From NCBI GenBank assembly GCA_021513715.1, contig CP084167.1, forward strand, positions 1,696,001 to 1,760,000: a stretch of DNA of 64,000 bases, given 5' to 3'. Under the pieces are notes generated by a model. That model had not been told where the DNA came from. It searched no databases and saw only the letters and a program-made list of their open reading frames with translations. The stretch is from Candidatus Heimdallarchaeum endolithica (GTDB lineage: Archaea; Asgardarchaeota; Heimdallarchaeia; Heimdallarchaeales; Heimdallarchaeaceae). The position numbers and the translations under genes are program-made. Of the stretch, positions 22,937 through 56,550 are shown one piece after another. Numbering within the stretch: position 1 is the first letter of the stretch; each line of letters starts with the position of its first letter.

Positions 22937-23094
22937 TTTTTAAATAAAAAGGAATGATGCTATTTGAGGACTAATGAGTATAGGTGAATTTGTTCCGAAC
23001 TTGCAGTAGCAACATTGTTTTACTTAGGAGTAGGAACAACACCTCAAAGAGTCTTTTTTTCTATGAGAAAAAATATGAGAAGGATGTGAAATAG
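22937..23094 (+). promoter_or_regulatory. proS leader: TATA, hairpin, Pro-sensing uORF and +1-frame coupling ORF
   Basis: TTTTTAAA at 22937-22944; stems TTTGAGG/CCTCAAA and TTGTTCC/GGAACAA; +1 frame open to TAG at 23092-23094, abutting the proS ATG. Confidence 0.75.
22974..23009 (+). CDS. Leader peptide MSIGEFVPNLQ
   Basis: ATG AGT ATA GGT GAA TTT GTT CCG AAC TTG CAG TAG; Pro codon at the same position as the cognate codon in the thrS and leuS leaders. Confidence 0.7.
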   Translation: MSIGEFVPNLQ

Positions 23095-24531
23095 ATGTCA
23101 GTTTTTACAAAGAAAAAGGATGAACAATTCATGGCATGGTATCTTGATGTCATTCGAAGAGCAGAAATTGTAGATACTCGAACAGGAGTCAAAGGTGCTA
23201 ATGTACTCATGAGCAATGGATATGAAATTTGGAAAAGGATGCAAAACATCTTGGATGAGAAATTCTATGGAACCAATCATAAAACTATGATATTCCCTTT
23301 ACTAATTCCTGAAAAATTCTTAATGATGGAAAAAGAACACTTTGCAGGATTCGTTCCAGAAGTAGCTCTCGTTACTCACGCAGGAGAAAAAAAATTAGAA
23401 GAAAATTATGCTTTAAGGCCAACATCTGAAACTATAATGTATCACTTGTATAGTCAATGGATCAGAAGTTACACAGATCTACCTTTAAAAGTAAATCAAT
23501 GGTGCAATATTATTAGAATTGACACAAAAGACACTAGACCTTTACTTCGTGACAGAGAATTCTACTGGACAGAGGCCCACACGTGCCATGAAACAGCAGA
23601 AGAAGCAGAAGAACAAGTGAAAGAATCAATGTGGATTTATTCAACATTCTTTGATGAATGTTGCTTACCTTATTTAGTACTCAAGCGTCCAAAACATGAC
23701 ACTTTTCCGGGAGCAGAATATAGCGTAGCTTATGATTGTCCTCTCCCAGATGGAAAAAGTCTCCAAATAGGAACTACACACAATCTCGCACAAGGATTTA
23801 GCAAAGTATTTAAAATCAAATTTCAGAAAGCTGATGGAAAACATGATTTTGCTTATCAAACTTGTTATGGATTATCCACGAGAGTTATAGCTGCCGTAAT
23901 TGGTGTTCATGGTGATGATCGAGGGTTAATTTTACCTCCATATCTAGCACCAACCCAAGTAGCTATTATTCCAATTATATTCAAAAGCAAAGAAGAAAAA
24001 GTGCAAAAGATTAGTAAAGAATTATATGAGAAAATCAAGTTGTCTGGTATAAGGGTAATATTAGATGACGGGCCTAAAACTAGTGGTTGGAAATTTAATG
24101 AATATGAGCTTCGAGGGGTACCAATAAGAATAGAAGTAGGCCCACGAGATGTAGAAAAAGGTTCTGTGGTTATTGTTCGTCGTGATACAAAGGAAAAGAT
24201 CGAAGTCAAAAATGAAGATATGATAGAAGAGATACAAAAATTGTTTAAAGCAATTACTATAGAATTAAAACAAAGAGCCAAGGCCTTATTGAAAAAATCT
24301 GTTTCAACACTAGAAACTTTAGAAGAAATTGAAGAGAAATTCAGCACAAAAAAACCTGGTTTCATCAGAACAAACTGGTGCGGAAATAAGAAATGTGCTG
24401 AATATGTAAAAGAAAACTTCCGAGCTAATATTCTTGGTACAAAGTATGGTGAAGTAGAGCAAGTTTTTGGAGATTGCCCTGTTTGCGGTGAAAAAGCTAA
24501 ACATGTTGTGTATCTTTCAAGAACTTACTAG
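23095..24531 (+). CDS. proS: Prolyl-tRNA synthetase, archaeal/eukaryotic type
   Basis: LRPTSET, REFYWTEAHT, QIGTTHNL and C-terminal zinc domain ending SRTY. Confidence 0.97.
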   Translation: MSVFTKKKDEQFMAWYLDVIRRAEIVDTRTGVKGANVLMSNGYEIWKRMQNILDEKFYGTNHKTMIFPLLIPEKFLMMEKEHFAGFVPEVALVTHAGEKKLEENYALRPTSETIMYHLYSQWIRSYTDLPLKVNQWCNIIRIDTKDTRPLLRDREFYWTEAHTCHETAEEAEEQVKESMWIYSTFFDECCLPYLVLKRPKHDTFPGAEYSVAYDCPLPDGKSLQIGTTHNLAQGFSKVFKIKFQKADGKHDFAYQTCYGLSTRVIAAVIGVHGDDRGLILPPYLAPTQVAIIPIIFKSKEEKVQKISKELYEKIKLSGIRVILDDGPKTSGWKFNEYELRGVPIRIEVGPRDVEKGSVVIVRRDTKEKIEVKNEDMIEEIQKLFKAITIELKQRAKALLKKSVSTLETLEEIEEKFSTKKPGFIRTNWCGNKKCAEYVKENFRANILGTKYGEVEQVFGDCPVCGEKAKHVVYLSRTY

Positions 24532-24639
24532 TTCTTCACTTTCCTATTTTATTTTTAAAATCTGTGACAAACGATAGATTTTTTTGTTTGAAAGATAGTT
24601 TTTTAATATTAATACAGTAATTAAGAAAGGAAGAGTAAA

Positions 24640-25020
24640 ATGTCAATAAGTTTACCACCAGAAAAGAAAAAAGAATTAATTAAAATATTAAAACAAATTT
24701 CACAAGGTTGTGAATTGGAAGCTTTAGCAGTTGTAACAGATGAGGGAATTAAAGTAGCTTTTTTTGCTGAGAAAAGTGCAGACCCTGATTTACTCAGTGC
24801 TGTAAGCTCTGCTGTTCTTTCCACCGGAGAGATGGTTACAAAACAGCTTTCTCACGGTTTTTTGGAACAAGTATTAATCCGTGGTGCTAAAGGATTTACA
24901 ATCTTATCTAATTTAGATAACTATCTTTTAATTGGAGCTTCTAAGGATTTACACAGCGTTGGTTTAGCTATACAAGTAATAAGAAGACATAGCCCCACAA
25001 TCTCAGAATTGTTAAACTAA
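24640..25020 (+). CDS. Roadblock/LC7 domain protein
   Basis: ALAVVTDEG...LLSAVSSAVLSTGE...LEQVLIRGAKG. Confidence 0.88.
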   Translation: MSISLPPEKKKELIKILKQISQGCELEALAVVTDEGIKVAFFAEKSADPDLLSAVSSAVLSTGEMVTKQLSHGFLEQVLIRGAKGFTILSNLDNYLLIGASKDLHSVGLAIQVIRRHSPTISELLN

Positions 25021-25056
25021 AAAAATAAAATAATAGAACTGATTAGTAAAAGAGAG

Positions 25057-26058
25057 TTAATAAAAGAGGAAACTCTTCTCTATTTCCTCTTGGCTAAAAC
25101 CAGCATTAATTCCAACAATTATTCTAATAAGGTCAGAGATTTCTGCATACTTCATTTCAAAAAAGGCAATTAATATCTCAATATCAGTTGAGGATTTTTG
25201 ACGAAATATTTTTTTCCATTTTTTGATTTGGAAACGTTCAACAGCAAATTCTATGTCATGTAAAGGGATATCATCTTTTCCCATGTAGTCAGCAAATATT
25301 CTTTTGTATACTCCAAAGTTGTACATGCTTAAGACTTCAGGAATAGAATTTGATTCTAATGCTTTAGCAATAAATGTTGTTGGTTTAATATAACGATAGG
25401 GAGCAATCCCAAGATTAATACATCTACACACCCATATTATATTCTTCAAATTAACGTATATATCAAATTCACGGGAAATTATAGGGAGAATATAATATTC
25501 AAACTGATCTATTGCTGCGTCAACTGGTACAAAACGTCCTGTTTTCTGAAATTCAGAATAACCTTGTTCTAGTAATTGTTTAAAAGTTTGAATTTTTTCT
25601 GACTTAATGATATCAGCAATTGATGAGGAGGAAGTAAGAACTTTTTCATAATATTCATAGCTATATTTTCCCACAGGAGAAACTCTTTCTAATATCTCTT
25701 CATGAGGTTGTTTCATAAAAAGTCCACGGAGAATATATCGGATATTCTCTGCATGAAATCGTTGAGAATGAAGATCGATTATTTTTTTTGCTCTACTTGA
25801 ACCTTGTTTATAAAAAGTGCTTACAGTTCGAGCAAAATGATTTTTTAATTGTTTTGCAACTTCTGGCATCTCTGTAACGAAATTTATATCTTGAACGATT
25901 GAACCATATTGTGTTTGCCGAAAAGCAGCTTGTAGTTCTTTAAGATTAGAGGAGGATAGAAGAAAATTTATCTGGCTTCGGCTAAGTACCTTGCCTATTA
26001 TTCCATGAGCTCTTCCATATAGATATCCATCTCCTGAGAACATTTTATTCACCAGCAA
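25057..26058 (-). CDS. atpC: V/A-type ATPase subunit C (AC39/d family)
   Basis: GYLYGRAHG, ENIRYILRG and EISDLIRIIVG; overlaps the subunit I stop. Confidence 0.8.
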   Translation of the reverse strand: MLVNKMFSGDGYLYGRAHGIIGKVLSRSQINFLLSSSNLKELQAAFRQTQYGSIVQDINFVTEMPEVAKQLKNHFARTVSTFYKQGSSRAKKIIDLHSQRFHAENIRYILRGLFMKQPHEEILERVSPVGKYSYEYYEKVLTSSSSIADIIKSEKIQTFKQLLEQGYSEFQKTGRFVPVDAAIDQFEYYILPIISREFDIYVNLKNIIWVCRCINLGIAPYRYIKPTTFIAKALESNSIPEVLSMYNFGVYKRIFADYMGKDDIPLHDIEFAVERFQIKKWKKIFRQKSSTDIEILIAFFEMKYAEISDLIRIIVGINAGFSQEEIEKSFLFY

Positions 26059-29000
26059 CAGTTGTGTATTGAATAAATTTGGTTTTCTCTAGTAATGGAG
26101 TATATTGGACACCTTCTCCTTTGTAGAATTTGGAAAAGAATTCTACCCAATGCAACCTCAGTGTCTGTAAGAATGAGAACATTCCTTCAATAGGTACAAT
26201 TACAACAAGTCCCCAAACAATGCCAACAAGCCAATAAATCCAAGAGGAAGCTAAAGCAGAGACGTTATGAGTATCAACACCAGCTAAAATATATGGAAGA
26301 CCACTCAAAATTGCATGGACTAGTAACATAGCTAAAATACGGCTAAAGGATAGTGTATTAGAGAATAGAGCAATGAGATGGTCTATAGCTTCCATGATCC
26401 CTTCTGTTCCTTCATGGAGATATTCGAAGAGGAAAACTAGAGGAATTGAAACTAAGGCAATAATTGTAAATATTGTAGAATAGGGTTTCGGTATACTAGG
26501 AAGTGCATTTCCTCCAATAAGTCGTGAAGTAGCGCCAGCACCCATTAAATTATACAAAACTGCAAAAAGTCCTACGTAAAAAATAGAAAGTATAATTGGA
26601 GAAACCCATGAAGCAACACCGTGACCATATTTTTTGTTTTCTATAAATCTTAACCAAATACCAAGTTGTATAAGTACAAAACCGATAGAAATGGAAAACA
26701 ATAAGAATAAGGGCACTTCTTTTGTAGGCTCAATTAAAGGCAACCATTCAATATGCAAAACATTTTCATAAATATGAGGTAGAAATACTTCATCACCTAG
26801 AAGTGCTCCAAATAGGAAACCGAAGATAATTGAAGAAAAACCAGAAAGAGTAAGTAACTCAGAACCTTTATACAGAAATCCAGACATTGATTCATCAGGT
26901 TCAATATTCTTTTTGTTTTTCTTATAAGTTAGAAACAATCCAATCAAGAAGAGAAGTATTCCATGTCCCACATCAGCGAACATTATACCAAATATCAAGG
27001 GAAAAGTAAATTGTATAATTTTGAAGGGGTCAACTTCATGAGTTGAAGGGATACCCATTCCATCAACTATTCCTCGAAAAACTTTAGTAACCTTATTTCC
27101 ATGTTTTGTCATAGAAGGATTCGTTAATGGTACTTTTTGTTTTTCAGACATAGTTATTGGAAAATCCAATTTTTCGGTTTCTTTCTTTAAGTCTTCAACC
27201 TTATCTTTAGGAACCCAACCCCAAATTGTTGTAGTAGTTTCATCAGTTTTACATTTTTCTTCTGTTTCCAACCTTTTAATTTCTGTTTCTATTAACTCTT
27301 CTAGTGCGAAGATTTTGTCTTCTACTTTCTCCCTAATTTCATCCAATTCATGTTCTTTATGTTCTATTTCAGTCTGAAGATTCGTGAGCTGACTTTCAAT
27401 AGATTCTGAAGATATCATGCTATAGTCAATAGATAACAGCTCAAAGGAATATTCTTCTAGAATTTGTTGTATAGACTTCTTATAGTCTATTAGAGACAAT
27501 ATATAGACAAAGACTGTGTCACTTTTTTCTGGTTGATCAACCTCAATGAAAACTAATTGCCCATCAGAAACTTCATTTAGGAAAAACTTTACAGCCTTAA
27601 CATTCTTTTTTGGGATATTCCCCAAAAAGGTGCAAGTTTCAAAATCTGGATCATCCAAGTATGGTTTAACATCAGAGCTTAAATAGGAATAAATAGGAAT
27701 GTATGTTTTTAATTCTGTTTCCTTCGCTTTTAATTCTTTAAGTTCGGAACTAAGATTTTCTATTTTTTCTCCATAATCTGCAATAAATTGCTCAACAAAA
27801 GATATAGCTTCATCATAGTTATCTTTTACAGCAATCTTAGAATCAGATATTGCTGGAGGAATAGATAATCCAAGGGCTTGTTTGTATCTGCTAATTTTGG
27901 AAGATAGTAAAGTTAAATTCTGTCTTTTTTGTTTTATGTCGTTTAAAATATCTTCTGACTGTCTTCCTATCTTCTCTTGATGAAGGATACCAGTGTTATG
28001 AATAAAGGAGATTAACTTACGTGTGTGCTCCTTTGGGACTTCCATTTTAACAAACTCTACATCCTTTGGAAATAAAGCTCCTCCCTTACTGTTACCTAAA
28101 TGATGATAAGGAGGAATTTCTTTTTCAATTGTTTTTTCTTCTTTCAAAGTCAAAGAACCACGATCCTTGGAAATTTTTTTAGATTTTTTATATTTCAGAG
28201 GAACATCCCTCAATTGAGTGAGTTTAACAGGAAAAGGAAGCTCTTTGAGTTCCTTTTCGAGAATAAGATAATCATTGGGTTTAATCCAACCCCAAAGGGT
28301 AAAATTAGTTTCAGTTGTTCGACCCTGTTCTAGAATATCAAATAATTCAAGCATGAGATTAATAGAAGTAAGAAAATGCAAAAGAGTCTCACGATGTTCA
28401 TCACGCAATTCTGAAATTTGAGATAAAATTTCATCGTGCTTTTCGTGCAGAAAGTCATGTACGTTAGCTACTGTAAGCTTGCTAGTTTCTTCATCACTGA
28501 ACATGTCGGCAAAAACAGAAAGCTCAAAATCTATTGAGGAAAAATAGAAATCTTCAAGAATAGTCGAAACCTCATCTTGATATTCTTGAGGGGTGAGAAT
28601 AAAAACCAAACGAAAATCAGGGTCAGATGATTCAATACTCCAAAAGTAATAAAGACCTTTAGTTATCTCATCGATATAGAAGGAGATAACTTCCTCATAC
28701 GAATGATGAATTTCTCCAACGATAGAAAAGGTGGAAGGTCCAGGAGAAAGTAAATCTAAAGAGATATCAGCATTCTTAAATTTATGCCGAAAATAATGAA
28801 GTTTATCAGCAATTAGATGTTTCTTTGTTAAAGAACGATTTTCTTCAAAAAGAGAGATATAAGAAGTTTCATGTGTGTCTAAGAAAGATTTTAGTTCGGA
28901 GAGAAATCTAGAAGCATCAAAAACATCAGAGTAGTTTTTTTCCGAATATAAATAAACATTAGAAAGATCTAGATCTAGTTCTTGTGAAATGGTAGTAAAA

Positions 29001-29173
29001 CGCTTTAACAAATCAGAAAAAAGCTGGCGATTATCTTCAATTTTAGCTAATTCTGAAGGAGATTGAGTATCAATTTGAACAAAATCAAAACAATCTAAAT
29101 AATGTAATTTGGATACAAGAAGAAGGGAGTCGGAGGGTGACACCTGAACCTTTGAAAGTACTCTTTTTGCCAT
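26045..29173 (-). CDS. atpI: V/A-type ATPase subunit I (a) with duplicated soluble N-terminal domain
   Basis: FGIMFADVGHG, SNTLSFSRILA (essential Arg) and LRLHWVEFFSKFY; two WGW-ending N-domains. ATG at 29173 has a GGTGA SD. Confidence 0.9.
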   Translation of the reverse strand: MAKRVLSKVQVSPSDSLLLVSKLHYLDCFDFVQIDTQSPSELAKIEDNRQLFSDLLKRFTTISQELDLDLSNVYLYSEKNYSDVFDASRFLSELKSFLDTHETSYISLFEENRSLTKKHLIADKLHYFRHKFKNADISLDLLSPGPSTFSIVGEIHHSYEEVISFYIDEITKGLYYFWSIESSDPDFRLVFILTPQEYQDEVSTILEDFYFSSIDFELSVFADMFSDEETSKLTVANVHDFLHEKHDEILSQISELRDEHRETLLHFLTSINLMLELFDILEQGRTTETNFTLWGWIKPNDYLILEKELKELPFPVKLTQLRDVPLKYKKSKKISKDRGSLTLKEEKTIEKEIPPYHHLGNSKGGALFPKDVEFVKMEVPKEHTRKLISFIHNTGILHQEKIGRQSEDILNDIKQKRQNLTLLSSKISRYKQALGLSIPPAISDSKIAVKDNYDEAISFVEQFIADYGEKIENLSSELKELKAKETELKTYIPIYSYLSSDVKPYLDDPDFETCTFLGNIPKKNVKAVKFFLNEVSDGQLVFIEVDQPEKSDTVFVYILSLIDYKKSIQQILEEYSFELLSIDYSMISSESIESQLTNLQTEIEHKEHELDEIREKVEDKIFALEELIETEIKRLETEEKCKTDETTTTIWGWVPKDKVEDLKKETEKLDFPITMSEKQKVPLTNPSMTKHGNKVTKVFRGIVDGMGIPSTHEVDPFKIIQFTFPLIFGIMFADVGHGILLFLIGLFLTYKKNKKNIEPDESMSGFLYKGSELLTLSGFSSIIFGFLFGALLGDEVFLPHIYENVLHIEWLPLIEPTKEVPLFLLFSISIGFVLIQLGIWLRFIENKKYGHGVASWVSPIILSIFYVGLFAVLYNLMGAGATSRLIGGNALPSIPKPYSTIFTIIALVSIPLVFLFEYLHEGTEGIMEAIDHLIALFSNTLSFSRILAMLLVHAILSGLPYILAGVDTHNVSALASSWIYWLVGIVWGLVVIVPIEGMFSFLQTLRLHWVEFFSKFYKGEGVQYTPLLEKTKFIQYTTVAGE

Positions 29174-29658
29174 TAATTTCTCACCAGAATAGTAAGCACG
29201 ATAGTTTAACAAAAAAAAAGAAGAACAATTTTAAAATCTTCCTACTGAACATAAGACAAAAAAGATAGTGATCTTATAACTAAAAAATATGAGTAAATAT
29301 TGGAGAAGAAACAAGAAAGAAAAGAATGAACTACAAAAACAAAGAAGAGAGTTAAAAAATTAAAAAAGAGATTTGAAAAAAAGAATTGTTTGGTTTAAAA
29401 ATCAGTGAAATTTTTAAATTTTATTCGAGAATAATTTATTTTAAATGGAAAAACAGTAAAAAAAGAGAAATAATAACAAATATGCAAATAATCCAAAAAC
29501 AAAAAATGGAAGATGAATTCATTTAAAAAGAATGACCTAAGAATAACAAAAAGTTTAATAACTTTCTAAAGGTAACTAAGGTCAGTAACCAAATAGGTTA
29601 GATTTGTAAAGACAAGTCGAAAAAAAATTGAAAAAACCAAACAATAGGTGAAAAATTT

Positions 29659-30795
29659 ATGGAAGAAATAGTATCTGATAAACCGTTGGTAATAGACAAC
29701 GGAACAGGATTCACAAAAAATGGATTCGCAGGAGAAGATCAACCAAGAAGTGTGTTCCCAACGCTAATAGGTTATCCAAAATACCAAATAATAATGACTG
29801 ATGTTGAACATTACGTGAGAGAATACTATATAGGAGAAGAAGCACTAAACTTGAGAGGAGTGCTAAAACTAGTATACCCAATAGAACATGGACAAATAGG
29901 TGACTGGGACGCTATGGAAAGAATCTGGCATTACACCTTCTATAACGACCTAAGAGTTAATCCTAACGAGCATCCTATTTTGCTCACTGAACCTCCTCTG
30001 AACAAGAATGTAAACAAGGAAAAAATGGCAGAATTAATGTTTGACACCTTTAATGTTCCGGCTATGTATATTAGCATGCAAGCTATTCTTTCGCTTTATG
30101 CTTCAGGTCGTACTACAGGTATTGTAGTAGATAGTGGAGATGGTGTCACACACATAGTTCCTGTTTACGAAGGGTTCGCAATTAGCCATGCTATTCGAAG
30201 AGCAGATATTGGTGGACGTGACATTACAGACTATCTACGTCGGCTATTAAGACAAAGAGGATATTCATTAACAAGCAGTGCAGAAAGAGAAATTGTTCGT
30301 GATATTAAGGAACGTCTGTGTTACGTAGCTTTAGATCCTGAAAAAGAACTTAAACTTGCAGAAAAAGTTTCAGGTATGGAAAAGACTTACACATTACCAG
30401 ATGGAGAAACACTAAGCATTGGCGCAGAGCGCTTTATGGCTCCAGAATTATTCTTCAACCCTGGAGCAATAGGATCAGAAGAACTGCCTATGGATGAACA
30501 AATATATCAATCTATCACTGATTGTGATGTCGATCTTAGAAGAGATCTTTATTCCAACATCGTCCTTTCTGGTGGGTCAACAATGTTCCCAGGTTTGAAA
30601 GAGAGATTACACAAGGAACTAACGGAACTAGTACCAGAGACTATGGAAGTAAAAATCATTGCTCCTCCAGAAAGACGTTACAGCGTATGGATAGGAGGAA
30701 GCATACTAAGTAGTCTGAAAACATTTACAAAACTGTGGGTAACTAAGAAAGAATATAAGGAAACTGGGCCTACAGCCGTTTATAGATGCATTTAA
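29659..30795 (+). CDS. Asgard actin (eukaryote-like actin)
   Basis: [45 protein letters not shown] and [15 protein letters not shown]. Confidence 0.98.
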
Positions 30796-30799
30796 CTTA

Positions 30800-30880
30800 A
30801 TTTTTTTCTCTTTCTTTTCCTTTTTAATTTTAATTTTTATTTATAATTTTTTAATTATAATTTATAATTTTTTAATTTTC
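30800..30880 (+). terminator. Long T-rich terminator region with a 17-bp direct repeat
   Basis: T tracts after the actin stop; TTTATAATTTTTTAATT at 30840-30856 and 30861-30877. Confidence 0.6.
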
Positions 30881-32379: not shown

Positions 32380-32529
32380 TTTTCACAATATTATTCAAAT
32401 ATACCCCCTTTTTTTTAGAACTTCTGCTTTTTTTCGTAATATCTTAATCAATTAATACTCTCATAATAATGATAGTTTCAAAGAGAGTTTACAAAAGAGA
32501 TATAAAGTTTGATATTTCTGGCACTTTTT

Positions 32530-33318: not shown

Positions 33319-33339
33319 AATAATCCCTTTTTTGCATTT

Positions 33340-35019
33340 TTATTTTTTAATTTTTGTTTTCTCTTTATTTTTTGTTTTAAATAATTCAAACTTTTCTGGC
33401 CGTAATAACATATAAGTTAGAATTCCAATTACAATTATCAATGCTGCAATATAAAAAGTTACTTTGTATGAATAAGCATCAGAATTTCCTCCTGAACTTA
33501 TCCAGTTAGCTATTTTTTGTGAGAACAGAAAGGCAACAATTACAGAAAAAACAAAAGAAATACTAAAAGATGATATCTGAATACTTTTTGTTTTATTTAA
33601 CTTAAAATAAGAAATAAAGAATGTAGCTAACCACATACATACGCTTACAATAAAGAATCCTACATATATTGAAAGAGTCACTAGATTTACGCCAACTATA
33701 CTATCTGCAACTGGACCTGTGATTAACGTTCCTCCTAGTCCCCAAGATAAATAAAAAGCAGCATTATAGTAACCCATCATTTTTCCTCTTATTTCAAGTG
33801 GAATAATCTTTGTTATCATTGAATAAGAGATAGTCTGTATCCAGACCCTAGATAATCCTAAAAGAGCCATATAGACAAAGATAAGTACAATAGACGGCGC
33901 AAAAGGTAGAATTAATGTTCCAACAAACAAAAAACTAAATCCAATTAACAATAGTGTATGATCACTGAAATGTTTAGTTAAAAAACCAACAAGCAACCCA
34001 CCAATTATCATTGCAATACTACTTGTATTTCTTAATTGAGCAACAATTACATCAGAAGCAGCAAAAGTTGACGGTAATCTTATGTAAATACTTACCATTT
34101 GGTTAATGCTATTTCCTCCGATATTTACAATTCCAAGAACTACTAAAATCCATACAAATAATTGCCATTCCCAACATATTTTTTGAGGATTCTTTACAGT
34201 GTTATTTTCTCCTTTTTTCTTCATGCTTTCTTCATTTTTATTCAAAATCGTATTGTTAATTGATACTACATCACTATCTTCTAGTTCAGCATAAGATTCA
34301 GGTATAAGGAACAAGGCTATAATACTGAAAACCATTATCCCTGAAGAAATAAAAAACAGATTTCCATTGGAAAATCCTTCTCCACCTAAGTATAAAAATC
34401 CACTTGCAGTAACACCTAATATATTTCCTATTCCTCCAATAAATTGGAGTCTACCCATTATTTTTCCTCTTTCAGTTTCTTTTGTTAGATCTGCTATCAG
34501 TGCAGTCCACCCTAGGTTACTACTACTCCATCCAGCTTCAATGATTGTGAAACCTATTATTATTGTATAAGCTGCTGCGTGAAGACTCTTGTTTATGGCC
34601 ATGTTCTTGTGAATAAAATATACTACAATATAACCCACAGCAGCATATAATTCTCCAAAAATGATTAATAGTCTCCTTTTTTGGAATTTGTCAGAAATTC
34701 TTCCCCAAACTGCTGATTGAGTTAGAATGTTTGCGACCATCGGTAATGTTGCATAAAGTGTCATTTCTGTGTTAGTTACACCCAGATTCTCCTTCAAATA
34801 TATACTTAGAAAAAAATAGAAGATCCCTCTTCTAAACATAGCCATTATCTGAAATATAGACAAGCTTACAAAATGCTTATTTCTCAAAGGTTTCACTCCA
34901 AGGAATATTTTATTTTTTGTCGTTTTGCTTTTTTTTGTAACGAATAAATAGTTTGTGTTTTGCCTATTTTTGTAATAAAAAAAAATTAAGTTAAAGTAAA
35001 CTTTTTTATATCGGTGCAA
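33340..35019 (-). CDS. MFS transporter (true start probably near 34896)
   Basis: Many TM helices; motif A WGRISDKFQKRR. Confidence 0.88.
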   Translation of the reverse strand: MHRYKKVYFNLIFFYYKNRQNTNYLFVTKKSKTTKNKIFLGVKPLRNKHFVSLSIFQIMAMFRRGIFYFFLSIYLKENLGVTNTEMTLYATLPMVANILTQSAVWGRISDKFQKRRLLIIFGELYAAVGYIVVYFIHKNMAINKSLHAAAYTIIIGFTIIEAGWSSSNLGWTALIADLTKETERGKIMGRLQFIGGIGNILGVTASGFLYLGGEGFSNGNLFFISSGIMVFSIIALFLIPESYAELEDSDVVSINNTILNKNEESMKKKGENNTVKNPQKICWEWQLFVWILVVLGIVNIGGNSINQMVSIYIRLPSTFAASDVIVAQLRNTSSIAMIIGGLLVGFLTKHFSDHTLLLIGFSFLFVGTLILPFAPSIVLIFVYMALLGLSRVWIQTISYSMITKIIPLEIRGKMMGYYNAAFYLSWGLGGTLITGPVADSIVGVNLVTLSIYVGFFIVSVCMWLATFFISYFKLNKTKSIQISSFSISFVFSVIVAFLFSQKIANWISSGGNSDAYSYKVTFYIAALIIVIGILTYMLLRPEKFELFKTKNKEKTKIKK

Positions 35020-35144
35020 TTTTCATCTTTTGAGGACAATGAATCCTGGTGAATATGAAACAATACAGTAAAATGCTTTCTTTTGGTTTAGTAGTTTATC
35101 TTTGTCCTCTTGGGAAAAAATGTTTTAAGGTGGAAAGATGGTAG
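35002..35144 (+). promoter_or_regulatory. thrS leader: TATA, hairpin, Thr-sensing uORF and +1-frame coupling ORF
   Basis: TTTTTTATA at 35002-35010; stem GAGGACAA (35032-35039) with TTGTCCTC (35102-35109); +1 frame open to TAG at 35142-35144, overlapping the thrS start. Confidence 0.75.
35039..35071 (+). CDS. Leader peptide MNPGEYETIQ
   Basis: ATG AAT CCT GGT GAA TAT GAA ACA ATA CAG TAA; Thr codon at the conserved position. Confidence 0.7.
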   Translation: MNPGEYETIQ

Positions 35145-37063
35145 AAGTAAAAGTAAAATTACCTGATAACAGTGAGATCGCCATTGAAAAGGGTAAAACA
35201 ATATTGGATTTAGCCAATAAAATAAGCCCCAATTTAGCAAAAGCATCTTTAGCAGCAAAAATAGATGATAAATTAGTGGATCTTACTTACCCAATTGAAC
35301 AAGATTGTAAAATAGAATTAATTACAGCCAGATCAGATGAAGCTTTTCATATTCTAAACCATAGTGCAGCTCATGTATTAGCTAGTGCTGTCGTTGAATT
35401 GTTTCCTGAAGCGAAGCCAACTATTGGACCCTCTGTTGATGAGGGATTTTATTACGATTTCGAGGTAAAAAAGCCCTTTTCTCAAGAGGATTTGGAAAAA
35501 ATAGAAAAGAAAATGATAGAGATAATAGAAGAAGATACTCCGTTTATTAGAGAAGAAGTTCCAATTCAAGAAGCTATCAAATACTATGAAAAAGTTGAGA
35601 AGAATAAATTCAAAGTAGAGATATTGAAAGAGATGCCAGATGTTGACACCGTTTCTTTTTATTCCCACCGAAACGGTAAATTCAAAGATCTTTGTAGAGG
35701 TCCCCATATCCCTTCAACAAAGAAAATTAAAGCAGTAAAAGTGCTTAATGCTTCTTCTGCTTTTTGGAGAGGAGATGCAAAAAGAGAATCCCTTCAAAGA
35801 GTATATGGTATCGCTTTTACTGACGCTAAAAAGTTAAAAAAACACTTGAAAATGCTTGAAGAAGCAAAAAAACGTGACCATAGAATTTTGGGACCACAAC
35901 TTGATCTATTCGATACTGCAGATGAGTGGGGACCTGGAATGCCATTAATTTATCCAAAAGGAACAATCCTCTTAGAAGTTATCAAAGAGTTTTGGAAAAA
36001 AGAACATAAAAAAGCAGGATATAAAGTTGTACAAACTCCTCATCTATTCAAAGAGATTGTATGGAAAACAAGTGGGCATTTAGATTATTACCTTGAAAAC
36101 ATGTATCCAGTAGATGCTAGAGGTGAACGTTGGTATGTTAAACCTATGAATTGTCCAGGACATATGATGATTTACAATAGAAAGACTTATTCTTACAGAG
36201 AGTTACCTGAACGAATAGCAGAAATGGGTACTGTGTATAGATATGAACTTTCAGGAGTATTACATGGTTTATTCAGAATTCGTGGTTTCACCCAAGATGA
36301 TAGTCACATTTTCATGCTTCCAGAGCAACTAGAAGATGAGATAGTAAAAATTATAGAGATGGTAAATCACTTTTATTCAGTGTTTGGATTCAAAGAATGG
36401 GAATTTTTCATTAGTACTAGACCTGAAAAATCTATTGGAACAGATGAAGGATGGGAACATGCTACAAAATCTTTAATGAATGCTATTGAAAGAGTTGGAA
36501 TCAAATATAAAATTAAACAAGGAGATGGAGCTTTTTATGGTCCAAAAATTGATGTTGATGTTAAAGATGCAATAGGAAGACGTTGGCAACTAGCAACCAT
36601 ACAAGTAGACTTTAACTTGCCAGAAAGATTTGATATAAATTACATTGGTGAAGATGGTCAAAAGCACAGACCATTCATTATTCATCGTGTAATATATGGA
36701 GCACTTGAACGCTTTTTAGCAATATTGGTAGAACATTATGCTGGAAAATTGCCTATATGGTTGAGCCCTGTACAAGCGATTGTTATTCCAATTACTGATG
36801 AACATATAAATTATGCAAAAAAGGTTGTAGAAATACTCGACAAGGAAGGAATTAGAGCAGAAGCTGATCTTTCAGGAGAACGAATGGAGTACAAAATAAG
36901 GCAAGCTAATCTTCAGAAAATACCTTACATTATTAATGTTGGAGGAAAAGAAATAGAAAACAATACTATAGCTGTTCGTGATCGAACTAATAAAGTGAGA
37001 TTCGGCGTAAAAATTGAAGAATTTGTTAAAGAAGTTAAAGAAAAAATAACAAATTATGAATAA
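35138..37063 (+). CDS. thrS: Threonyl-tRNA synthetase, bacterial/eukaryotic type (TGS and N2 editing domains)
   Basis: HSAAH, DLCRGPH, RDHR, KPMNCPGH and GAFYGPKID motifs. Confidence 0.97.
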   Translation: MVEVKVKLPDNSEIAIEKGKTILDLANKISPNLAKASLAAKIDDKLVDLTYPIEQDCKIELITARSDEAFHILNHSAAHVLASAVVELFPEAKPTIGPSVDEGFYYDFEVKKPFSQEDLEKIEKKMIEIIEEDTPFIREEVPIQEAIKYYEKVEKNKFKVEILKEMPDVDTVSFYSHRNGKFKDLCRGPHIPSTKKIKAVKVLNASSAFWRGDAKRESLQRVYGIAFTDAKKLKKHLKMLEEAKKRDHRILGPQLDLFDTADEWGPGMPLIYPKGTILLEVIKEFWKKEHKKAGYKVVQTPHLFKEIVWKTSGHLDYYLENMYPVDARGERWYVKPMNCPGHMMIYNRKTYSYRELPERIAEMGTVYRYELSGVLHGLFRIRGFTQDDSHIFMLPEQLEDEIVKIIEMVNHFYSVFGFKEWEFFISTRPEKSIGTDEGWEHATKSLMNAIERVGIKYKIKQGDGAFYGPKIDVDVKDAIGRRWQLATIQVDFNLPERFDINYIGEDGQKHRPFIIHRVIYGALERFLAILVEHYAGKLPIWLSPVQAIVIPITDEHINYAKKVVEILDKEGIRAEADLSGERMEYKIRQANLQKIPYIINVGGKEIENNTIAVRDRTNKVRFGVKIEEFVKEVKEKITNYE

Positions 37064-46062: not shown

Positions 46063-46077
46063 AGCAAATTTTTCCTT

Positions 46078-47313: not shown

Positions 47314-47459
47314 TAATGAGAAAAATTAATGAATACAAATAAATGTTGCTTTAAATCAGCAATTATTTTGAATTAATCTATTTTCTCTGTAAGAATTTAA
47401 GTAAGAAGGAGTTCTTTTATTTGTATTAAGTTAAAATATACCATTTATTGAAAAACGTA

Positions 47460-49669: not shown

Positions 49670-49676
49670 AACTAGC

Positions 49677-50702: not shown

Positions 50703-50968
50703 ACGGTTAGTAATTCTGATATTTTATTGTGTAATTCATTTAATTTCTCATTATTAAGTGCTCCAGAAGATTCAATTTCTAAATTAAGAGTGAGCTTATT
50801 GTTTTTATCTTGTTCTAGATCAATTATTATTGAATACTCAGTGAGAATAGACATCAATTTCTCGGAAGTTAAATAATCAAATAATCTTTCAGTCAATTTT
50901 TCAGCAAAGTTTTCTAGTTCTTTAGATGAAAAAGAAGGAAGTCCGATTTCAATGAAATCTTCTGTCAT
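50657..50968 (-). CDS. Conserved archaeal protein (DUF3194-like)
   Basis: EIGLPSFS N-terminus; located between prefoldin beta and DHH genes. Confidence 0.6.
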   Translation of the reverse strand: MTEDFIEIGLPSFSSKELENFAEKLTERLFDYLTSEKLMSILTEYSIIIDLEQDKNNKLTLNLEIESSGALNNEKLNELHNKISELLTVWLEEELRCYKNSKE

Positions 50969-50998
50969 ATATTACACACCGCTAAAAGGGAATAATCC

Positions 50999-51337
50999 CT
51001 AAATTTTTAGTCGCTCTTGAATTTCCTTTAGAGAGTTCAATATGTTTTTCTCTCTTTTTTGAAGAGAAGACAGATGTACCTCTATTCTTTCAAGTTCATC
51101 TGTTAACGATTTTTTCACAGTTTCAACGTCTGATTGAAAAAGTATTGGACCAGTAGAGCGATAAATTACAGTTGAATTATCTAATTCATCGACCACTTTC
51201 AGAGCATTCGAACTATCATGTTTCATGATTTCATATTGCTGGATGTTTATTCTAATTGAATCTAAACTTTGACGGAGTTCATAATATCGTTGAACATCTT
51301 TTTCTTGTTCTGGTGTAAGTTTTCCTGGACTTGACAT
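50999..51337 (-). CDS. pfdB: Prefoldin beta subunit
   Basis: Coiled coil, IYRSTGPIL beta hairpin, coiled coil. Confidence 0.88.
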   Translation of the reverse strand: MSSPGKLTPEQEKDVQRYYELRQSLDSIRINIQQYEIMKHDSSNALKVVDELDNSTVIYRSTGPILFQSDVETVKKSLTDELERIEVHLSSLQKREKNILNSLKEIQERLKI

Positions 51338-51468
51338 AATATATCCTCATTTAATGATATGAACTTCAAGTAATAGAGGAAATAAAGTTTTTGTTAAGTC
51401 ATATCTATCAAAGTCTTTTAGAAAACAATTATTTTGATTTAGTTATAGAATCTTTTTTTACTTATATT

Positions 51469-52472
51469 AAGCATGTCCAAAAATTCTTTTTCACCAACTA
51501 AACGGTCCGAAGGAGTAAAAGGTAGTTGTAACAGAGAAGAGAACTGTACAAGGTAGAGAGAATGGTGGAGGGTAAACGATCAAGGATTGGGGGAAGAGAG
51601 AGTTTAAGGAGACCAAAGACGTGTTCAATACTACTACGATACTCGGGATGATGATTACGACGATACAGACCAGGGTAGAGACGATGAGCTTGAACTATTG
51701 GTCCGAGGGGAGGAGGAGAGGGATAACGAGCATTACTTTTTGGGGGAATAACAGGGAAAAAGGAATGTTGGCTAAGAAGTCCAACGATATTTTCTGTCCA
51801 GTAGGCACAGTCTCCATAAAATCGCAAGAAAGGTCTCAAGAGTGCAGAAGGAAGTTTCTGCCAGAGTAAACCGAAGACTTTACTATCGTGAGTGTTACTA
51901 GCAGAATGAGCGAGAGAGACTATAGCTCGAGAGGGTAAACCAACTATAAGGTGTATCTTCCAGAAAAGTTTAGAGGTTTTCTTTAGTGTCCCTCTTGACC
52001 ATTTGAGAAAACGCCAAACAGAAGCTTGACGGATTTTAAACCCTGAACTATCCACTGCCATAGCTTTCAAGCCTTTTTTCCTCACTATTTCCCTACCTAA
52101 ATCTATTATCCACTGCTCTAAGATTTTACTTTCTGTCGCTCTCCACACTGCATGAAAAGTAGATTTAGAAGGAATCTTCTTCATCCACCCCTCTTCTATC
52201 AAAAAATCGCATAAAGACAACTTTTCCTCTAACTTCCTCCAAGCTATCCCTTCTATTCTAGCAATGATTGCTAAAGCCAGTATCACCCATCTTTCTGCTA
52301 TTCTCTTTCTCCCTCTCTTGCTTTCTCTCGGTTCCTCTTTCACCAGTTTCTTAAGGAAAGGTTCATTAATGATTATGAATTCTCTTGCTTTGTGGGGGTC
52401 TATGATCTGAAAGAAATTCATACTTCCGACATAAACCCCCACATTAATAAAAATTAATTTTTGGACATGCTT
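51469..52472 (-). mobile_element. IS5/IS982-like DDE insertion sequence, intact copy
   Basis: 17-bp perfect TIR AAGCATGTCCAAAAATT; 6-bp TSD TATATT (51463-51468 and 52473-52478). Confidence 0.95.
51498..52442 (-). CDS. DDE transposase
   Basis: AVDSSG (D), GDCAY (D) and RSSIEHVF (E). Confidence 0.92.
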   Translation of the reverse strand: MGVYVGSMNFFQIIDPHKAREFIIINEPFLKKLVKEEPRESKRGRKRIAERWVILALAIIARIEGIAWRKLEEKLSLCDFLIEEGWMKKIPSKSTFHAVWRATESKILEQWIIDLGREIVRKKGLKAMAVDSSGFKIRQASVWRFLKWSRGTLKKTSKLFWKIHLIVGLPSRAIVSLAHSASNTHDSKVFGLLWQKLPSALLRPFLRFYGDCAYWTENIVGLLSQHSFFPVIPPKSNARYPSPPPLGPIVQAHRLYPGLYRRNHHPEYRSSIEHVFGLLKLSLPPILDRLPSTILSTLYSSLLCYNYLLLLRTV

Positions 52473-52521
52473 TATATTATAAAAAATAAAAAAGAAGTTA
52501 AAGTTTGAAATTTAAAAACAA

Positions 52522-53205
52522 TTATTTCAGTTTGGCAAATTCTTCTTCAATATGAGATATTTTAATGCCAAGACTATCCATTAAAACAAAGCACCAACCC
52601 AACCAAATATTTACAAAACCCTTTGCTCCTGCATCTACAACTCCAGCTTCTTTCAAAACAGGTAATAGATTGGGGGTTTCTTTTAGAGATTCTACTGCAG
52701 TTAAATAGGTGCCACTGATCATTTCTACCCAATCACCACCATTTTCTGCTATTTCTCTGGCTTTGTCAGCAGTATCTTTTATTACTGTTAACATTGTTCC
52801 TTCTTGAGGATTCATTACAGCATCGTAAGCCCACTCTTTTCCTTCTTGTAATGCTTCTGCAAATTCTTTAATACCTATTTCTTCGTGTTCTTCAATTGAA
52901 GAAGAAAATCCTTGGAAAAATTGACTAATTATAACTCCAGAATTTCCTTTAGCTCCTAAAAATGAACCTTTAGAAATTAATTGAGCAGCTTCTGCAACTG
53001 ATTTAGCATTATCATCCGTGAATTGCTCAATTACTGTTCTGACAGTTAAAAACAGATTCACTCCAGTGTCTCCATCTGGAACTGGAAAAACGTTAATTGC
53101 ATTAATTTCTTCCTTTGTTCGTTCTAAATTATTAGCAGCAGTAATCATCATTTTCTTAAGAGTAGAGCCGTTAATTTTTGTGCTACTTAGCATCACTTTT
53201 TTCAC
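52522..53205 (-). CDS. DAK2/DhaL-domain protein (FakA N-terminal-like)
   Basis: NVFPVPDGDTG, GNSGVI, EGTMLTV and VVDAGA motifs. Confidence 0.9.
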   Translation of the reverse strand: MKKVMLSSTKINGSTLKKMMITAANNLERTKEEINAINVFPVPDGDTGVNLFLTVRTVIEQFTDDNAKSVAEAAQLISKGSFLGAKGNSGVIISQFFQGFSSSIEEHEEIGIKEFAEALQEGKEWAYDAVMNPQEGTMLTVIKDTADKAREIAENGGDWVEMISGTYLTAVESLKETPNLLPVLKEAGVVDAGAKGFVNIWLGWCFVLMDSLGIKISHIEEEFAKLK

Positions 53206-53382
53206 CGATTCTTATTGTTTGTTTCTCGAAATACAGTTTTACGGCTTCCTTTATAATACTTCCTAGTTTTTATGACCGTAAAATATTATTTTCAAAATTA
53301 TGTTTTTTCAATTCTTTTTAAGTTTAATCTTTGTTCGTTTCATAGCCGTATAATATTATATAGTCATAAAATAATAAAAAAA

Positions 53383-56319
53383 TTAAAGGAGTAAAATAGC
53401 TGGTTTCATAGGTCTTGCTTTACGGGCTTTATTTTGTGGGTCAAAAACATCTTTTGTATCAGAAATGTAAGTTTCAACTGTTATTTCAGGGTATTTTTTA
53501 TTGATTATTTTTATATACCCTTGAATTGCATTCAATTGTTCGTCTGGAGTTAGCATTGAGATTCTAAAGATTGTTGGATCTTTCATCATTAATTTTGCTT
53601 CATCTGCGATATTCTTCATATATTTATTTAATGTCTCATGGTTTTTCACTAGAGACATTATTTTGCCTATATTGAAAGCTTCCTCAGCGAATGAATCTTT
53701 GGCCAATTTATATAACTCATTTTTCCATTGTGGAGCTATATATATGATCATTTTTTTAGGTTCAGATTTAACTAATTTCATAACCTGTTCTATATCTTTC
53801 ATCAAATTAGTCAAGAATTTAAGTTGTAATGCAAGTTGTGTGTCTTCTTCTGTTAAAATTATGTCTTCTATTTTTTGTAAAGAAACAAAACCTGTATTCC
53901 CATACCGTTCATATATCTCTTCACAAATGTGAGGGATTACTGGTGCCATCAGTATTATCATGTTTTCAACAGTCTCTTTTATTACACTTTGAACCTCTTT
54001 CTCATTCGAGTTTGAAGATAATTTCAAGTAATTTTCTAGTTCTCGGATATTATCAAAGAACCCTGATAATATATAGTCTCTTGGATTAAATCGTTCCATT
54101 GCATCAATTGCCAACTTCATGTTACGTTTTACAGAAGCTAGAACAATCTTAGATATAAACGAATATGATTGTGGGTCAATTTTTTCACTCTTTTCAACCA
54201 TTATTGCAAATTCCCAAAACTTACGCAATTTTTCTTTAGAATGGTTAACTTCCACTTCTCTCCAGTCAACTACAGACTCTTGTGTTGCTATAGAAGCTAA
54301 ATGTAGGCGAGTTAAGTCAACACTATACTTCTCTGGGATTTTAGCTATTGGAATTACGTTTCCTTTGCTTTTTCCCATTTTTTCTCCTTCTCTATTTAAC
54401 ATTTCATTCAAAGAGAACATCTGAGGCCAATATTTTTCTTGGAAAATAGCTACATGATGGAAAATAGTAAAGGACAAATGATTGGAGATATGTGCAATTG
54501 CTGTATGTCGTAAATCATTGGGATACCAATACTCAAATTCACTTTTCATAGCATTTATAGTATCAACAGAGATACTTGTTTCTTTAGATACTGTTTCAAC
54601 ATCGTGGTTAGAGAGAAATATATGATCGAATAATATTGGTTTTAATTGTTCTGGTTTTATTTTAGATTCTTTAATTGTCTTAATAATTGTATAAAATGCC
54701 ATGTAAATAACAGAATCACTTAGTGATTCTATGATCCAGCCTTTTCCCTTTGTTATAGGAAATTCTGTTCCTAGCCCTCTCTTTCTCACACATGGACGCT
54801 TATCTAACCAATTGAACACATTCTCAAATGCTTGACGATATTTTTCAGGAACTATTTTCATATTGTTTAATGCTTTAAATGCAAGTTCTTTCCATTTTTT
54901 ATTTCCATAATTTAAGAAATATTGGTCTTCAATCACCGCAGCTATTATTTTTCCACCACACCTACATTTTGCTTTTGTTGAAACCTCATAGACATTTGAT
55001 GCTAAATTCAGTTCTTTGAGCTTTTTCGCCACAGCAACTTTTGCCTCCTCAACTTTTAAGCTATTAAATTCTCCTGTGTTGGATTTCATCACTCCAGAGT
55101 AAAACTCTTCTTTATATATTGTCTGTGTAGCTTTCTCCAATTTTTCTATATCTTCTTGACTCTGAACACCCATCTTTTCATATATTTCTACTGCAGGAAA
55201 CTCACCATACCCATCTAATTTAATTAAAGAGATTGGGATAATACTTTTTAGTTTACTTTCGTCCAAGGAATATTTCTTTATTAATTCTTCATTTTTTTGC
55301 AAATCTACCAAAGCCGCATAATCATAAGGCGCATGTCCTGGAACACTATATACTACTCCAGTTGCATGATCTGTATCAACAAATGTTGCAGGATAAATTG
55401 GAATAACAACTCCAGTTAACGGCACTTCAACTTCTTGGTCAAATAATTCTCTTCCCTTAAATTCTCTAGTTATCTCAATTTTATGATGTTGATTCTTTAG
55501 TTTACTTACAGCTTCAGATGATACTATCCAATTTTCATCATCTATTTTAATCTCACAATATTTATTTTCAGGATTTATCCAAACATTTGTTGCTCCAAAG
55601 ATAGTTTCAGGTCTGAAGGTAGCAGCAACCAAAAATGTGTTTTTGTTTTTTAATTTGAACTTAATTCCAACGAATTCAGAAACTTCTACTTTTGTTTCAT
55701 CTCCTGCATAAATATCATCCTCTCCAACAGCATTTTTACAGTTTGTACACCACAAAATAGGATATTCTCCTTTTGTTATGTATCCTTTTTCGTTAAGAAT
55801 TTTGTATTGCCATTCAATAAATTTGTTATATTCTGGATCACCTGTAGTAAATTCACGTGTATCATCTATTGAAAATCCCATTCTCTTAAAGTCTTCCATT
55901 AATTTTCCTGAAAAATACATAGCTACGTTCATCGGCTCTACAAATGAGCCAACAATTTCTTCTACTTTTTTTTCATCGGATTCGTAGATAGACACATAAT
56001 CTCGGTATTTTTTCCATTCTTTTTCATCTTTTTCTTTTATTTTTGCGGATACAGATAAAACAGGTGTTCCTGTAATATGATAAGCCATTGGCCACATCAC
56101 ATTAAATCCCCGTTGCCTTTTATAACGTGTAAATAGATCTCCAAGATTATATGTTCTACAATGCCCTATATGAAGAGTTCCGCTTGCATAGGGATAAGGT
56201 ACAGTAACAAAATACTTGGGTTTGGAATGGTCAACTTTACCTACAAATATTTTCTTTTCATCCCATCGTTTTTGCCATTTTGTTTCAATTTTACGTATTC
56301 CTTCTAAAAAACTAGCCAT
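53383..56319 (-). CDS. leuS: Leucyl-tRNA synthetase, archaeal type
   Basis: HIGH, ATFRPET (CP1) and KMGKSKGN motifs. Confidence 0.97.
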   Translation of the reverse strand: MASFLEGIRKIETKWQKRWDEKKIFVGKVDHSKPKYFVTVPYPYASGTLHIGHCRTYNLGDLFTRYKRQRGFNVMWPMAYHITGTPVLSVSAKIKEKDEKEWKKYRDYVSIYESDEKKVEEIVGSFVEPMNVAMYFSGKLMEDFKRMGFSIDDTREFTTGDPEYNKFIEWQYKILNEKGYITKGEYPILWCTNCKNAVGEDDIYAGDETKVEVSEFVGIKFKLKNKNTFLVAATFRPETIFGATNVWINPENKYCEIKIDDENWIVSSEAVSKLKNQHHKIEITREFKGRELFDQEVEVPLTGVVIPIYPATFVDTDHATGVVYSVPGHAPYDYAALVDLQKNEELIKKYSLDESKLKSIIPISLIKLDGYGEFPAVEIYEKMGVQSQEDIEKLEKATQTIYKEEFYSGVMKSNTGEFNSLKVEEAKVAVAKKLKELNLASNVYEVSTKAKCRCGGKIIAAVIEDQYFLNYGNKKWKELAFKALNNMKIVPEKYRQAFENVFNWLDKRPCVRKRGLGTEFPITKGKGWIIESLSDSVIYMAFYTIIKTIKESKIKPEQLKPILFDHIFLSNHDVETVSKETSISVDTINAMKSEFEYWYPNDLRHTAIAHISNHLSFTIFHHVAIFQEKYWPQMFSLNEMLNREGEKMGKSKGNVIPIAKIPEKYSVDLTRLHLASIATQESVVDWREVEVNHSKEKLRKFWEFAIMVEKSEKIDPQSYSFISKIVLASVKRNMKLAIDAMERFNPRDYILSGFFDNIRELENYLKLSSNSNEKEVQSVIKETVENMIILMAPVIPHICEEIYERYGNTGFVSLQKIEDIILTEEDTQLALQLKFLTNLMKDIEQVMKLVKSEPKKMIIYIAPQWKNELYKLAKDSFAEEAFNIGKIMSLVKNHETLNKYMKNIADEAKLMMKDPTIFRISMLTPDEQLNAIQGYIKIINKKYPEITVETYISDTKDVFDPQNKARKARPMKPAILLL

Positions 56320-56550
56320 TTTTACACCTCAATTCTGGAATAAAGAGCTTTTCTTTTCTATTGTAAATTACAGTTGCAATAAAACATGGTTCCATTATAA
56401 ATTTACTGTAAAAAGATTCTTTTCTAAAAATTCGGGAAACCTTATATCCAGTAACTATGTTAATAGAATAATTGTTTTCCAAGAAGAACATAGTCACCTT
56501 TCATCTTCTGGTCTCCTAAAAACAAAAAGGAGATATTAGTTAAAAAATTT
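56312..56550 (-). promoter_or_regulatory. leuS leader: TATA, hairpins, Leu-sensing uORF and +1-frame coupling ORF
   Basis: TTTTTTAA near 56547-56540; stems GGAGACC/GGTTTCC and GGTGACTATGTT/AACATAGTTACT; +1 frame (track ORF 56312..56497) ends in a TAG just past the leuS ATG. Confidence 0.75.
56460..56504 (-). CDS. Leader peptide MKGDYVLLGKQLFY
   Basis: ATG AAA GGT GAC TAT GTT CTT CTT GGA AAA CAA TTA TTC TAT TAA; tandem Leu codons at the conserved position. Confidence 0.7.
   Translation of the reverse strand: MKGDYVLLGKQLFY

Follow-up and report, generated by a model that had tools for sequence, protein, structure and literature searches.

In the bacterial trpL, thrL, hisL, pheL and pheM attenuators and in T-box riboswitches, a 5' leader with a cognate codon adjusts the expression of a synthetase or pathway to how far the cognate tRNA is charged. 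How archaea control the levels of their aminoacyl-tRNA synthetases (aaRS) without T-boxes, known attenuators or Gcn2 has, to our knowledge, no known answer. Here, we analysed a window of 64,000 nucleotides (the whole stretch of DNA studied: contig CP084167.1, positions 1,696,001 to 1,760,000, assembly GCA_021513715.1) from the closed 3.33-Mb genome of the Asgard archaeon Candidatus Heimdallarchaeum endolithica. In this window, the prolyl-, threonyl- and leucyl-tRNA synthetase genes (proS, thrS and leuS) are each preceded by a short upstream open reading frame (uORF) with a common cassette, consisting of an internal Shine-Dalgarno (SD)-like element, a slippery codon, a codon for the substrate of the downstream enzyme (the sensor codon) and an early stop, and a shifted frame runs open from there to the gene start. 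The first-pass annotation had read these leaders as prfB-like +1 frameshift switches. We give a probability of roughly 0.8 to the reading that the leader is a sensor of charged tRNA acting through programmed frameshifting at a hungry codon.

The +1 site of prfB, the gene for release factor 2 (RF2) (PMC5009743), shares with the cassette an internal SD, a slippery P-site codon, an A-site decoding step that depends on the gene product and an early in-frame stop. The two differ in the A site, which holds a UGA stop for a release factor in prfB and a sense codon for a charged tRNA in the cassette, and in the slip, which is CUU.U in prfB whereas the P codon of the cassette is mostly GUU, GAA or UUU. 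Moreover, the shifted frame of prfB encodes the protein, while that of the cassette mostly ends at the gene start (ileS of Njordarchaeia, described below, being the exception), and, unlike prfB, the cassette has a −1 class and is reusable before many genes. The ermCL leader (PMC5009743) also combines a frameshift in a short leader ORF with translation of the spacer and activation of a downstream gene. However, its inducer is a ribosome-bound antibiotic and its target one bacterial resistance gene, whereas the signal for the cassette is probably the missing cognate aminoacyl-tRNA; the main SD behind the cassette is not predicted to be masked, and nothing in the sequence points to antibiotic induction. 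At the +1 sites of yeast Ty1, ABP140 and EST3 (PMC5009743, PMC8211752), a single P-site tRNA likewise slips at a slow A-site codon, but these sites use rare codons and make fusion proteins. In the oORF/mORF arrangement of Caenorhabditis elegans zip-2 (PMC11831180), a +1 shift from an upstream frame senses slow elongation and switches the gene on; this system is eukaryotic and responds to general elongation stress, not to a specific amino acid.

With attenuators and T-boxes the cassette shares its purpose and a 5' leader carrying a cognate codon. It differs from attenuators in that its cognate codons do not form a run and its output would depend on a change of frame (a scan of the proS leader called no intrinsic terminator, though such a scan may not apply to factor-aided archaeal termination), and from T-boxes in giving no T-box match in Rfam; indeed, the window leaders and six other loci gave no Rfam match at all. 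Frameshifting in pheL has been judged incidental, and a 2016 review knew of no starvation-specific productive use of hungry-codon shifting (PMC5009743); a 2021 review named fucA1 as the only reported archaeal −1 case (PMC8211752). Our literature search, whose reach excluded most subscription papers, found no description of such a system. The cassette falls outside prfB-type sites, attenuators and T-boxes, though its parts have precedents in prfB and ermCL.

The three cassettes were found where the first-pass annotation had placed them when the sequence was re-read. On the forward strand, the proS leader has a TATA-like box at 22937-22946 (orthologues have a similar box at a similar distance), a 5' end containing the uORF SD and the 5' arm of an outer stem (22963-22971), and a sensor uORF of 11 codons (22974-23009) with the cassette GGT GAA TTT GTT CCG, which was found in 28 proS leaders. 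Its conserved internal GGTGA (22983-22987), complementary to the 3' end of the genome's 16S rRNA, ends 4 nt 5' of the P-site codon; the slip site GTT and the sensor CCG (Pro) occupy 22992-22997, and Pro is predicted there by a profile trained on other genes. The +1 frame is open over 22993-23094, and its stop TAG (23092-23094) abuts the ATG of proS (23095-24531), whose product, prolyl-tRNA synthetase (ProRS), scores above the TIGR00408 cut-off. Folding predicts the 3' arm of a hairpin followed by a T7 tract at 23033-23060.

The thrS leader, also on the forward strand, has a TATA-like box (35002-35010), a uORF SD that forms the 5' arm of a conserved 6-bp stem by alignment and folding (35030-35038), and a 10-codon uORF (35039-35071) with GGT GAA TAT GAA ACA, found in 19 thrS leaders. 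GGTGA lies at 35048-35052, the slip site GAA with the sensor ACA (Thr), invariant across the 19 thrS cassettes, at 35057-35062, and the predicted 3' arm that pairs with the uORF SD at 35102-35112. The +1 frame (35058-35144) ends in a TAG at 35142-35144, 4 nt past the ATG of thrS (35138-37063), which encodes a bacterial-type threonyl-tRNA synthetase (ThrRS; TIGR00418 above cut-off). On the reverse strand, the leuS leader has a TATA-like box (56539-56547), a uORF SD (56510-56517) folding as the 5' arm of a stem that closes at 56441-56435, and a 14-codon uORF (56504-56460) with GGT GAC TAT GTT CTT CTT, found in 24 leuS leaders. Here, GGTGA lies at 56498-56494 and the slip site GTT with the sensor CTT (Leu), assigned by the profile and the cassette set, at 56484-56489. 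The open +1 frame of about 59 codons (56312-56488) ends in a TAG (56314-56312) just past the ATG of leuS (53383-56319), which encodes an archaeal leucyl-tRNA synthetase (LeuRS; TIGR00395 above cut-off).

The uORF lengths of 10 to 14 codons that had been claimed were thereby confirmed, as were the fifth codon matching the downstream enzyme, the early frame-0 stop (the fourth, third and eighth codon after the sensor in proS, thrS and leuS) and the +1 frame that is stop-free to the aaRS start and ends in TAG there in all three genes. A TATA-like box lies 25-35 nt 5' of every uORF ATG, in agreement with the transcription starts proposed earlier, which are themselves predictions. The chance of an open +1 frame by shuffling was 0.19, 0.31 and 0.017 for proS, thrS and leuS, or about 0.001 jointly. 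When the strict cassette was searched for in the whole genome with a regular expression, the only non-coding matches with a gene start 100-190 nt 3' of them were proS, thrS and leuS. GGUGA is a valid SD core, because the 3' end of the 16S rRNA carries the usual anti-SD. The leader 5' ends of the bacterial-type thrS (35030-35071) and of proS (22963-23009) were nearly identical. Possibly, the bacterial-type thrS was acquired and then received a copy of the cassette; no cassette was seen at the archaeal-type thrS loci of relatives.

All 20 synthetases of the genome were located; proS, thrS and leuS are indeed the only ones in the window. The pattern described for "all three" extends to ileS, in the +1 form, and to pheS and trpS, in a −1 form, but not to most synthetases: 6 of the 20 carry a cassette, and in the remaining 14, most of which have a TATA-like box near the start and look leaderless or short-leadered, none was seen. 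The ileS leader, found by a scan that was not tuned to the window motif, reads ATG GAT CGC GAA ATT CAC TAA, with the +1-frame TGA directly before the gene ATG. The pheS (TTG GAA TTT CGA TAG) and trpS (TTG GGT TGG) leaders have a −1 frame open up to the gene start. In pheS, TTG GAA TTY with a stop within 0-3 codons is retained in 27 of 28 leaders; another candidate frame (M-P-W-N-F) was rejected, as 7 relatives (8 if the degenerate locus L093 is counted) have lost the Phe and several lack a start. At one pheS locus (L112), the −1 frame enters the phenylalanyl-tRNA synthetase (PheRS) in frame without a stop, and the gene retains its own SD and ATG. At an ileS locus (L124), the head GGATGGATC is identical to the 16S rRNA stretch immediately 5' of the anti-SD, and can also pair with the anti-SD in two registers, 1 base apart. 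A profile scan of the genome made the four +1 synthetase leaders stand out clearly among the intergenic regions, and no other candidate for the regulon was convincing. Loosening the search to every uORF in the genome that has an open shifted frame returned 112 rows, mostly chance.

We then asked how closely the sensor codon follows the enzyme. A profile of the 12 nt 5' of the sensor codon was trained each time without the gene under test, and the sites it ranked top were cognate in 14 of 16 proS, 18 of 20 thrS and 23 of 23 leuS leaders, against a background of 3-11%. The profile trained on proS, thrS and leuS alone found the ileS head in 0 of 35 cases, because its SD form differs. The full profile was fixed before new loci were fetched, and of 100 new leaders 23 scored high, 19 of them with a cognate codon, 19 with an open frame and 18 with both (background 9.6% and 20%). 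In whole-genome pattern scans, 26 of 27 matches fell at thrS, proS or leuS leaders, with 0 in the control. When the sensor was allowed to be Leu or Ile, 15 Leu matches lay before a LeuRS-matched protein and 2 Ile matches before an isoleucyl-tRNA synthetase (IleRS), and none were crossed; the rest were truncated at contig ends, were ambiguous or lay close to other genes. The three approaches agree that the sensor codon follows enzyme specificity, as had been proposed. Furthermore, one and the same head, ATG GAT NNN, serves different amino acids in different lineages (Ile at ileS, Leu at leuS, Pro at proS and Phe at one pheS), a natural codon-swap experiment. A single sensor codon is the rule; many leuS leaders have two.

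Selection on the shifted frame was assessed in 151 cassettes from related, non-independent Asgard genomes (101 of the +1 and 50 of the −1 class). In 150 of them, the open shifted frame reached a point no more than 22 nt from the gene start, compared with 21 for the third frame and 26.8 expected from shuffles; after clustering of the spacers at 60% identity, it was open in 87 of 88 (18 expected). Stops per spacer codon amounted to 1 in 3478 for the shifted frame, 280 in 3464 for the third frame and 396 in 3560 for frame 0, so the frame that had been proposed as open is uninterrupted in relatives too. As the leaders vary in length from 60 to 210 nt, the open shifted frame points to maintained selection. 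Its stop lies at or just past the start, with 33 at an NTGA overlap and nearly all within −9 to +32, and avoids −24 to −10 (2 against 61 and 58). The shifted frame is in frame with the gene in 11 of 151 cases where about 50 would be expected, and 10 of these 11 stop just before the ATG, showing that fusion is avoided. Layout, conservation, matching of codon to enzyme and selection on the shifted frame are thus features of the sequences themselves.

The slip sites fall into two classes. Of the 101 +1 cassettes, 100 have NUU or NAA as the P codon (CUU in 6), and the base that follows usually lets positions 2 and 3 re-pair. In all 50 cassettes of the −1 class, the base 5' of the P codon is identical to the first base of that codon and co-varies with it: the site is G.GAA in Heimdallarchaeia and C.CAA in Thorarchaeia, both G having switched to C together. 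The +1 form originally put forward, to which proS, thrS, leuS and ileS of this genome belong, is not the only kind, the −1 class comprising pheS, trpS and some ileS leaders. The A site is a cognate sense codon in all 151 cassettes. That a single tRNA slips while the A site is empty is established as the mechanism at hungry codons (PMC8211752, PMC5009743).

The ileS genes of Njordarchaeia present a fused form of the cassette. In four of five (L498, L499, L500 and L261), there is no usable start before the conserved N-terminal motif, and the IleRS frame begins within the cassette AGG GAT TAC GAA ATT. Two of the four lack ATG, GTG and TTG over the first 50 codons, a third reaches an ATG only beyond the conserved motif, and the fourth has a TTG without a suitably placed SD; the sole well-placed start is that of the out-of-frame uORF. 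Because the synthetase frame lacks a usable start, IleRS seems to need a +1 slip in these archaea, which directly supports the view that the slip is productive. The arrangement is, on present evidence, prfB-like autoregulation at the same type of site, with the same overall plan as prfB, and the annotated IleRS starts are likely wrong.

Orthologous leaders retain the cassette throughout the order before thrS, proS, leuS, ileS, pheS and trpS. In the same class, both of the other families sampled had it, as did Thorarchaeia, Baldrarchaeia, Njordarchaeia and several more Asgard families, and it preceded a single hisS and a single valS gene. One trpS and one pheS have the +1 form, and the −1 form precedes ileS in two families. 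No cassette was seen in most of the sampled Lokiarchaeia, in families f7, f15 and f17 and in most leaders of f19, in the proS leaders of 17 non-Asgard genomes (DPANN, bacteria), or at three probably non-Asgard leuS loci in operons. In the cultured Ca. Lokiarchaeum ossiferum, the leuS leader (CP104013, L463:480-715) contains ATG AGT GAT CAT TTT CTC and an early stop, and its +1 frame stays open over 200 nt, up to +13. The LeuRS of this species shares 56% identity with that of the window, whereas the LeuRS of other sampled Lokiarchaeia, which lack the cassette, are about 30% identical, suggesting that the gene travelled with its leader. Many members of the family have another, more divergent type of ProRS (L053-L060; about 39% identity, 503 aa), which lacks the cassette and looks leaderless. 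In one Thorarchaeia genome, a B12-binding radical SAM gene lies behind a uORF that resembles the cassette, with an Ile codon and 190 nt of open +1 frame (L496:1454-1670), a single case that may be chance.

From this pattern we infer the slip itself, its dependence on charging, the direction of regulation and the route of output. A ribosome would initiate on the uORF and come to have the slippery codon in its P site and the cognate codon in its A site, held by the internal SD-like element. With plentiful charged tRNA, the cognate codon would be decoded and translation would stop a few codons on. With scarce charged tRNA, the A site would stay empty and the peptidyl-tRNA would re-pair 1 base away, in the +1 direction at GUU.C, CUU.C, UUU.N, GAA.A or CAA.A and in the −1 direction at G.GAA, G.GAC, G.GGU or C.CAA. 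The shifted ribosome would then cross the entire leader in a stop-free, non-conserved frame and stop at the synthetase start, raising synthetase output by termination-reinitiation, by covering the RNA against termination by aCPSF1/FttA, or by both. In the Njordarchaeia ileS genes, the shifted frame would be the enzyme itself.

Several observations weigh against this proposal. Stimulation of +1 shifting in bacteria requires an SD 3 nt from the shift site, and −1 shifting requires 9-14 nt (PMC5009743). The first-pass annotation had equated the geometry of the cassette with that of prfB, because spacing was counted from the end of GGUGA; this does not hold, since GGTGA, although it ends 4 nt 5' of the P codon, has its complement further inside the anti-SD. 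In the GGAGG register the spacing is 7 nt (6 nt in the AGG GAT and GGG TAT heads), which resembles the spacing of start codons in these genomes, so that the stimulator role is putative; the internal SD may serve to hold a paused ribosome and not to push it. The pheS leaders have a GAGG or GGGG 11-14 nt upstream of the P codon, a distance within the −1 range. At GUU.C and GAA.A, the first-position pair is lost on re-pairing, and at G.GAC re-pairing is weak. The main genes have good SDs that are not predicted to be masked, which leaves a low basal expression unexplained. Finally, the relatedness of the genomes behind the 151 cassettes lowers the weight of their counts, the search anchors included the cognate codon, and four anchors were added by hand after the open frame had been seen; the unbiased checks are the whole-genome Leu/Ile pattern scan and the pre-fixed profile on new leaders.

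Attenuation by stalling, in which a pause on the cognate codon would alter RNA folding or polymerase coupling and the open frame would be a by-product, is the alternative that survives best, though we consider it unlikely. It would account for the conservation of the cognate codon and the early stop, short stems between the uORF start region and the spacer recur in every gene, T tracts occur in spacers, and the genome encodes aCPSF1/FttA. These folds are, however, unremarkable. The first-pass annotation had placed each uORF in the 5' arm of a hairpin; predicted folds do pair the uORF region with the spacer, but with z-scores of just −1.3, −1.2 and −2.5, and about 0 on average in relatives. Gene by gene, mean z ranged from +0.6 to −0.8, the consensus stems have 6-14 pairs, with mostly one-sided variation and little double-sided covariation, and neither folding, spacer analysis nor alignments supported a strong conserved hairpin. 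The scan for intrinsic terminators, run on the proS leader, called none, although it may not apply to factor-aided archaeal termination. Stalling does not predict a depletion of stops in one frame only (1 against 280) over unrelated leaders of 60-210 nt, nor the Njordarchaeia ileS genes, which seem to need the shift, and there is a single sensor codon in place of a run.

Slightly less probable still is a pair of overlapping uORFs without frameshifting, in which GGTGA would be the SD of a second, +1-frame uORF coupled to the synthetase, and the ribosome on the first uORF would block or free it. A +1-frame NTG indeed lies 2 nt after GGTGA in all three window leaders (TTG, ATG and ATG), the SD spacing is like that of a start codon, and the new A-site codon of the −1 class is ATG, CTG, TTG or ATT. 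Across the +1 class, however, the triplet is ATG, GTG or TTG in only 47 of 101 cassettes (the others being GCG, GCC, GTT and so on), and 36 of the 151 shifted frames contain no ATG, GTG or TTG at all. Overlapping uORFs would also leave the conserved slippery P codon and its covariation with the neighbouring base unexplained, and a stalled ribosome would cover the second start, giving repression under starvation.

A fixed frameshift that does not sense charging, and serves a constant low synthetase level or a small functional peptide, is the least probable of the three: several sensor codons are common within their codon families (ACA 46%, ATT 49%), so that their slowness would not come from rarity, but a constant throttle would not account for a match between A-site codon and enzyme that extends over eight specificities, and a conserved shifted-frame peptide is not supported, as lengths differ without a consistent third-position bias (thrS being a partial exception). 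Transcriptional slippage was set aside, as the sites have no long homopolymer.

Under the charged-tRNA sensor reading, a simple unmasking of the synthetase start by unfolding is not well supported, since the stems cover the ribosome-binding region of the uORF and not the main SD, for which the mean pairing probability was 0.4-0.6 and no conserved masking stem was seen. The first ribosome to load on the nascent RNA would be favoured by such stems, much as it is in attenuation. Termination-reinitiation works in archaea, prefers NTGA overlaps and fades past 30-40 nt (PMC12548453), which fits shifted-frame stops that cluster at the start and avoid −24 to −10. On the other side, aCPSF1/FttA prefers U-rich RNA and has been proposed to act when coupling lapses (PMC11616081); T tracts in the spacers exceed A tracts only modestly in length. 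We rate re-initiation and escape from aCPSF1/FttA about equal as candidate routes; both need the same open frame, so the sequence cannot decide between them.

Taken together, the comparisons point to a sensor of tRNA charging that probably forms a third class, an archaeal one, next to T-boxes and attenuators. This would be a modular +1/−1 cassette, ancient enough to occur in most Asgard classes, that would be re-targeted by a one-codon swap and act by re-initiation, aCPSF1/FttA escape or fusion. If true, hungry-codon frameshifting would here be put to purposeful use as a starvation sensor for the first time, and the known programmed frameshifts of archaea would multiply.

Other features of the genome and window were also recorded. 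Two tRNA-synt_1c enzymes (frames of 656 and 586 aa, at C1:1225083-1226324 and 1597439-1598632) suggest that both a glutaminyl-tRNA synthetase (GlnRS) and a glutamyl-tRNA synthetase (GluRS) are present in this archaeon. An Rfam match to SNORD36 (7773-7847) lies within a coding region, is barely over the threshold (E 0.7) and is probably spurious. The A/V-ATPase subunit I encoded at 26045-29212, of about 1050 aa, is far longer than usual. By eye, from the translations, we noted two related transposase-like ORFs and a TnpB-like ORF (6795-7319, 51498-52442 and 59894-61345), an actin-family gene (29659-30795) and a cluster of ESCRT-III-like, Vps4-like and E1/ThiF-like genes (7369-12733).

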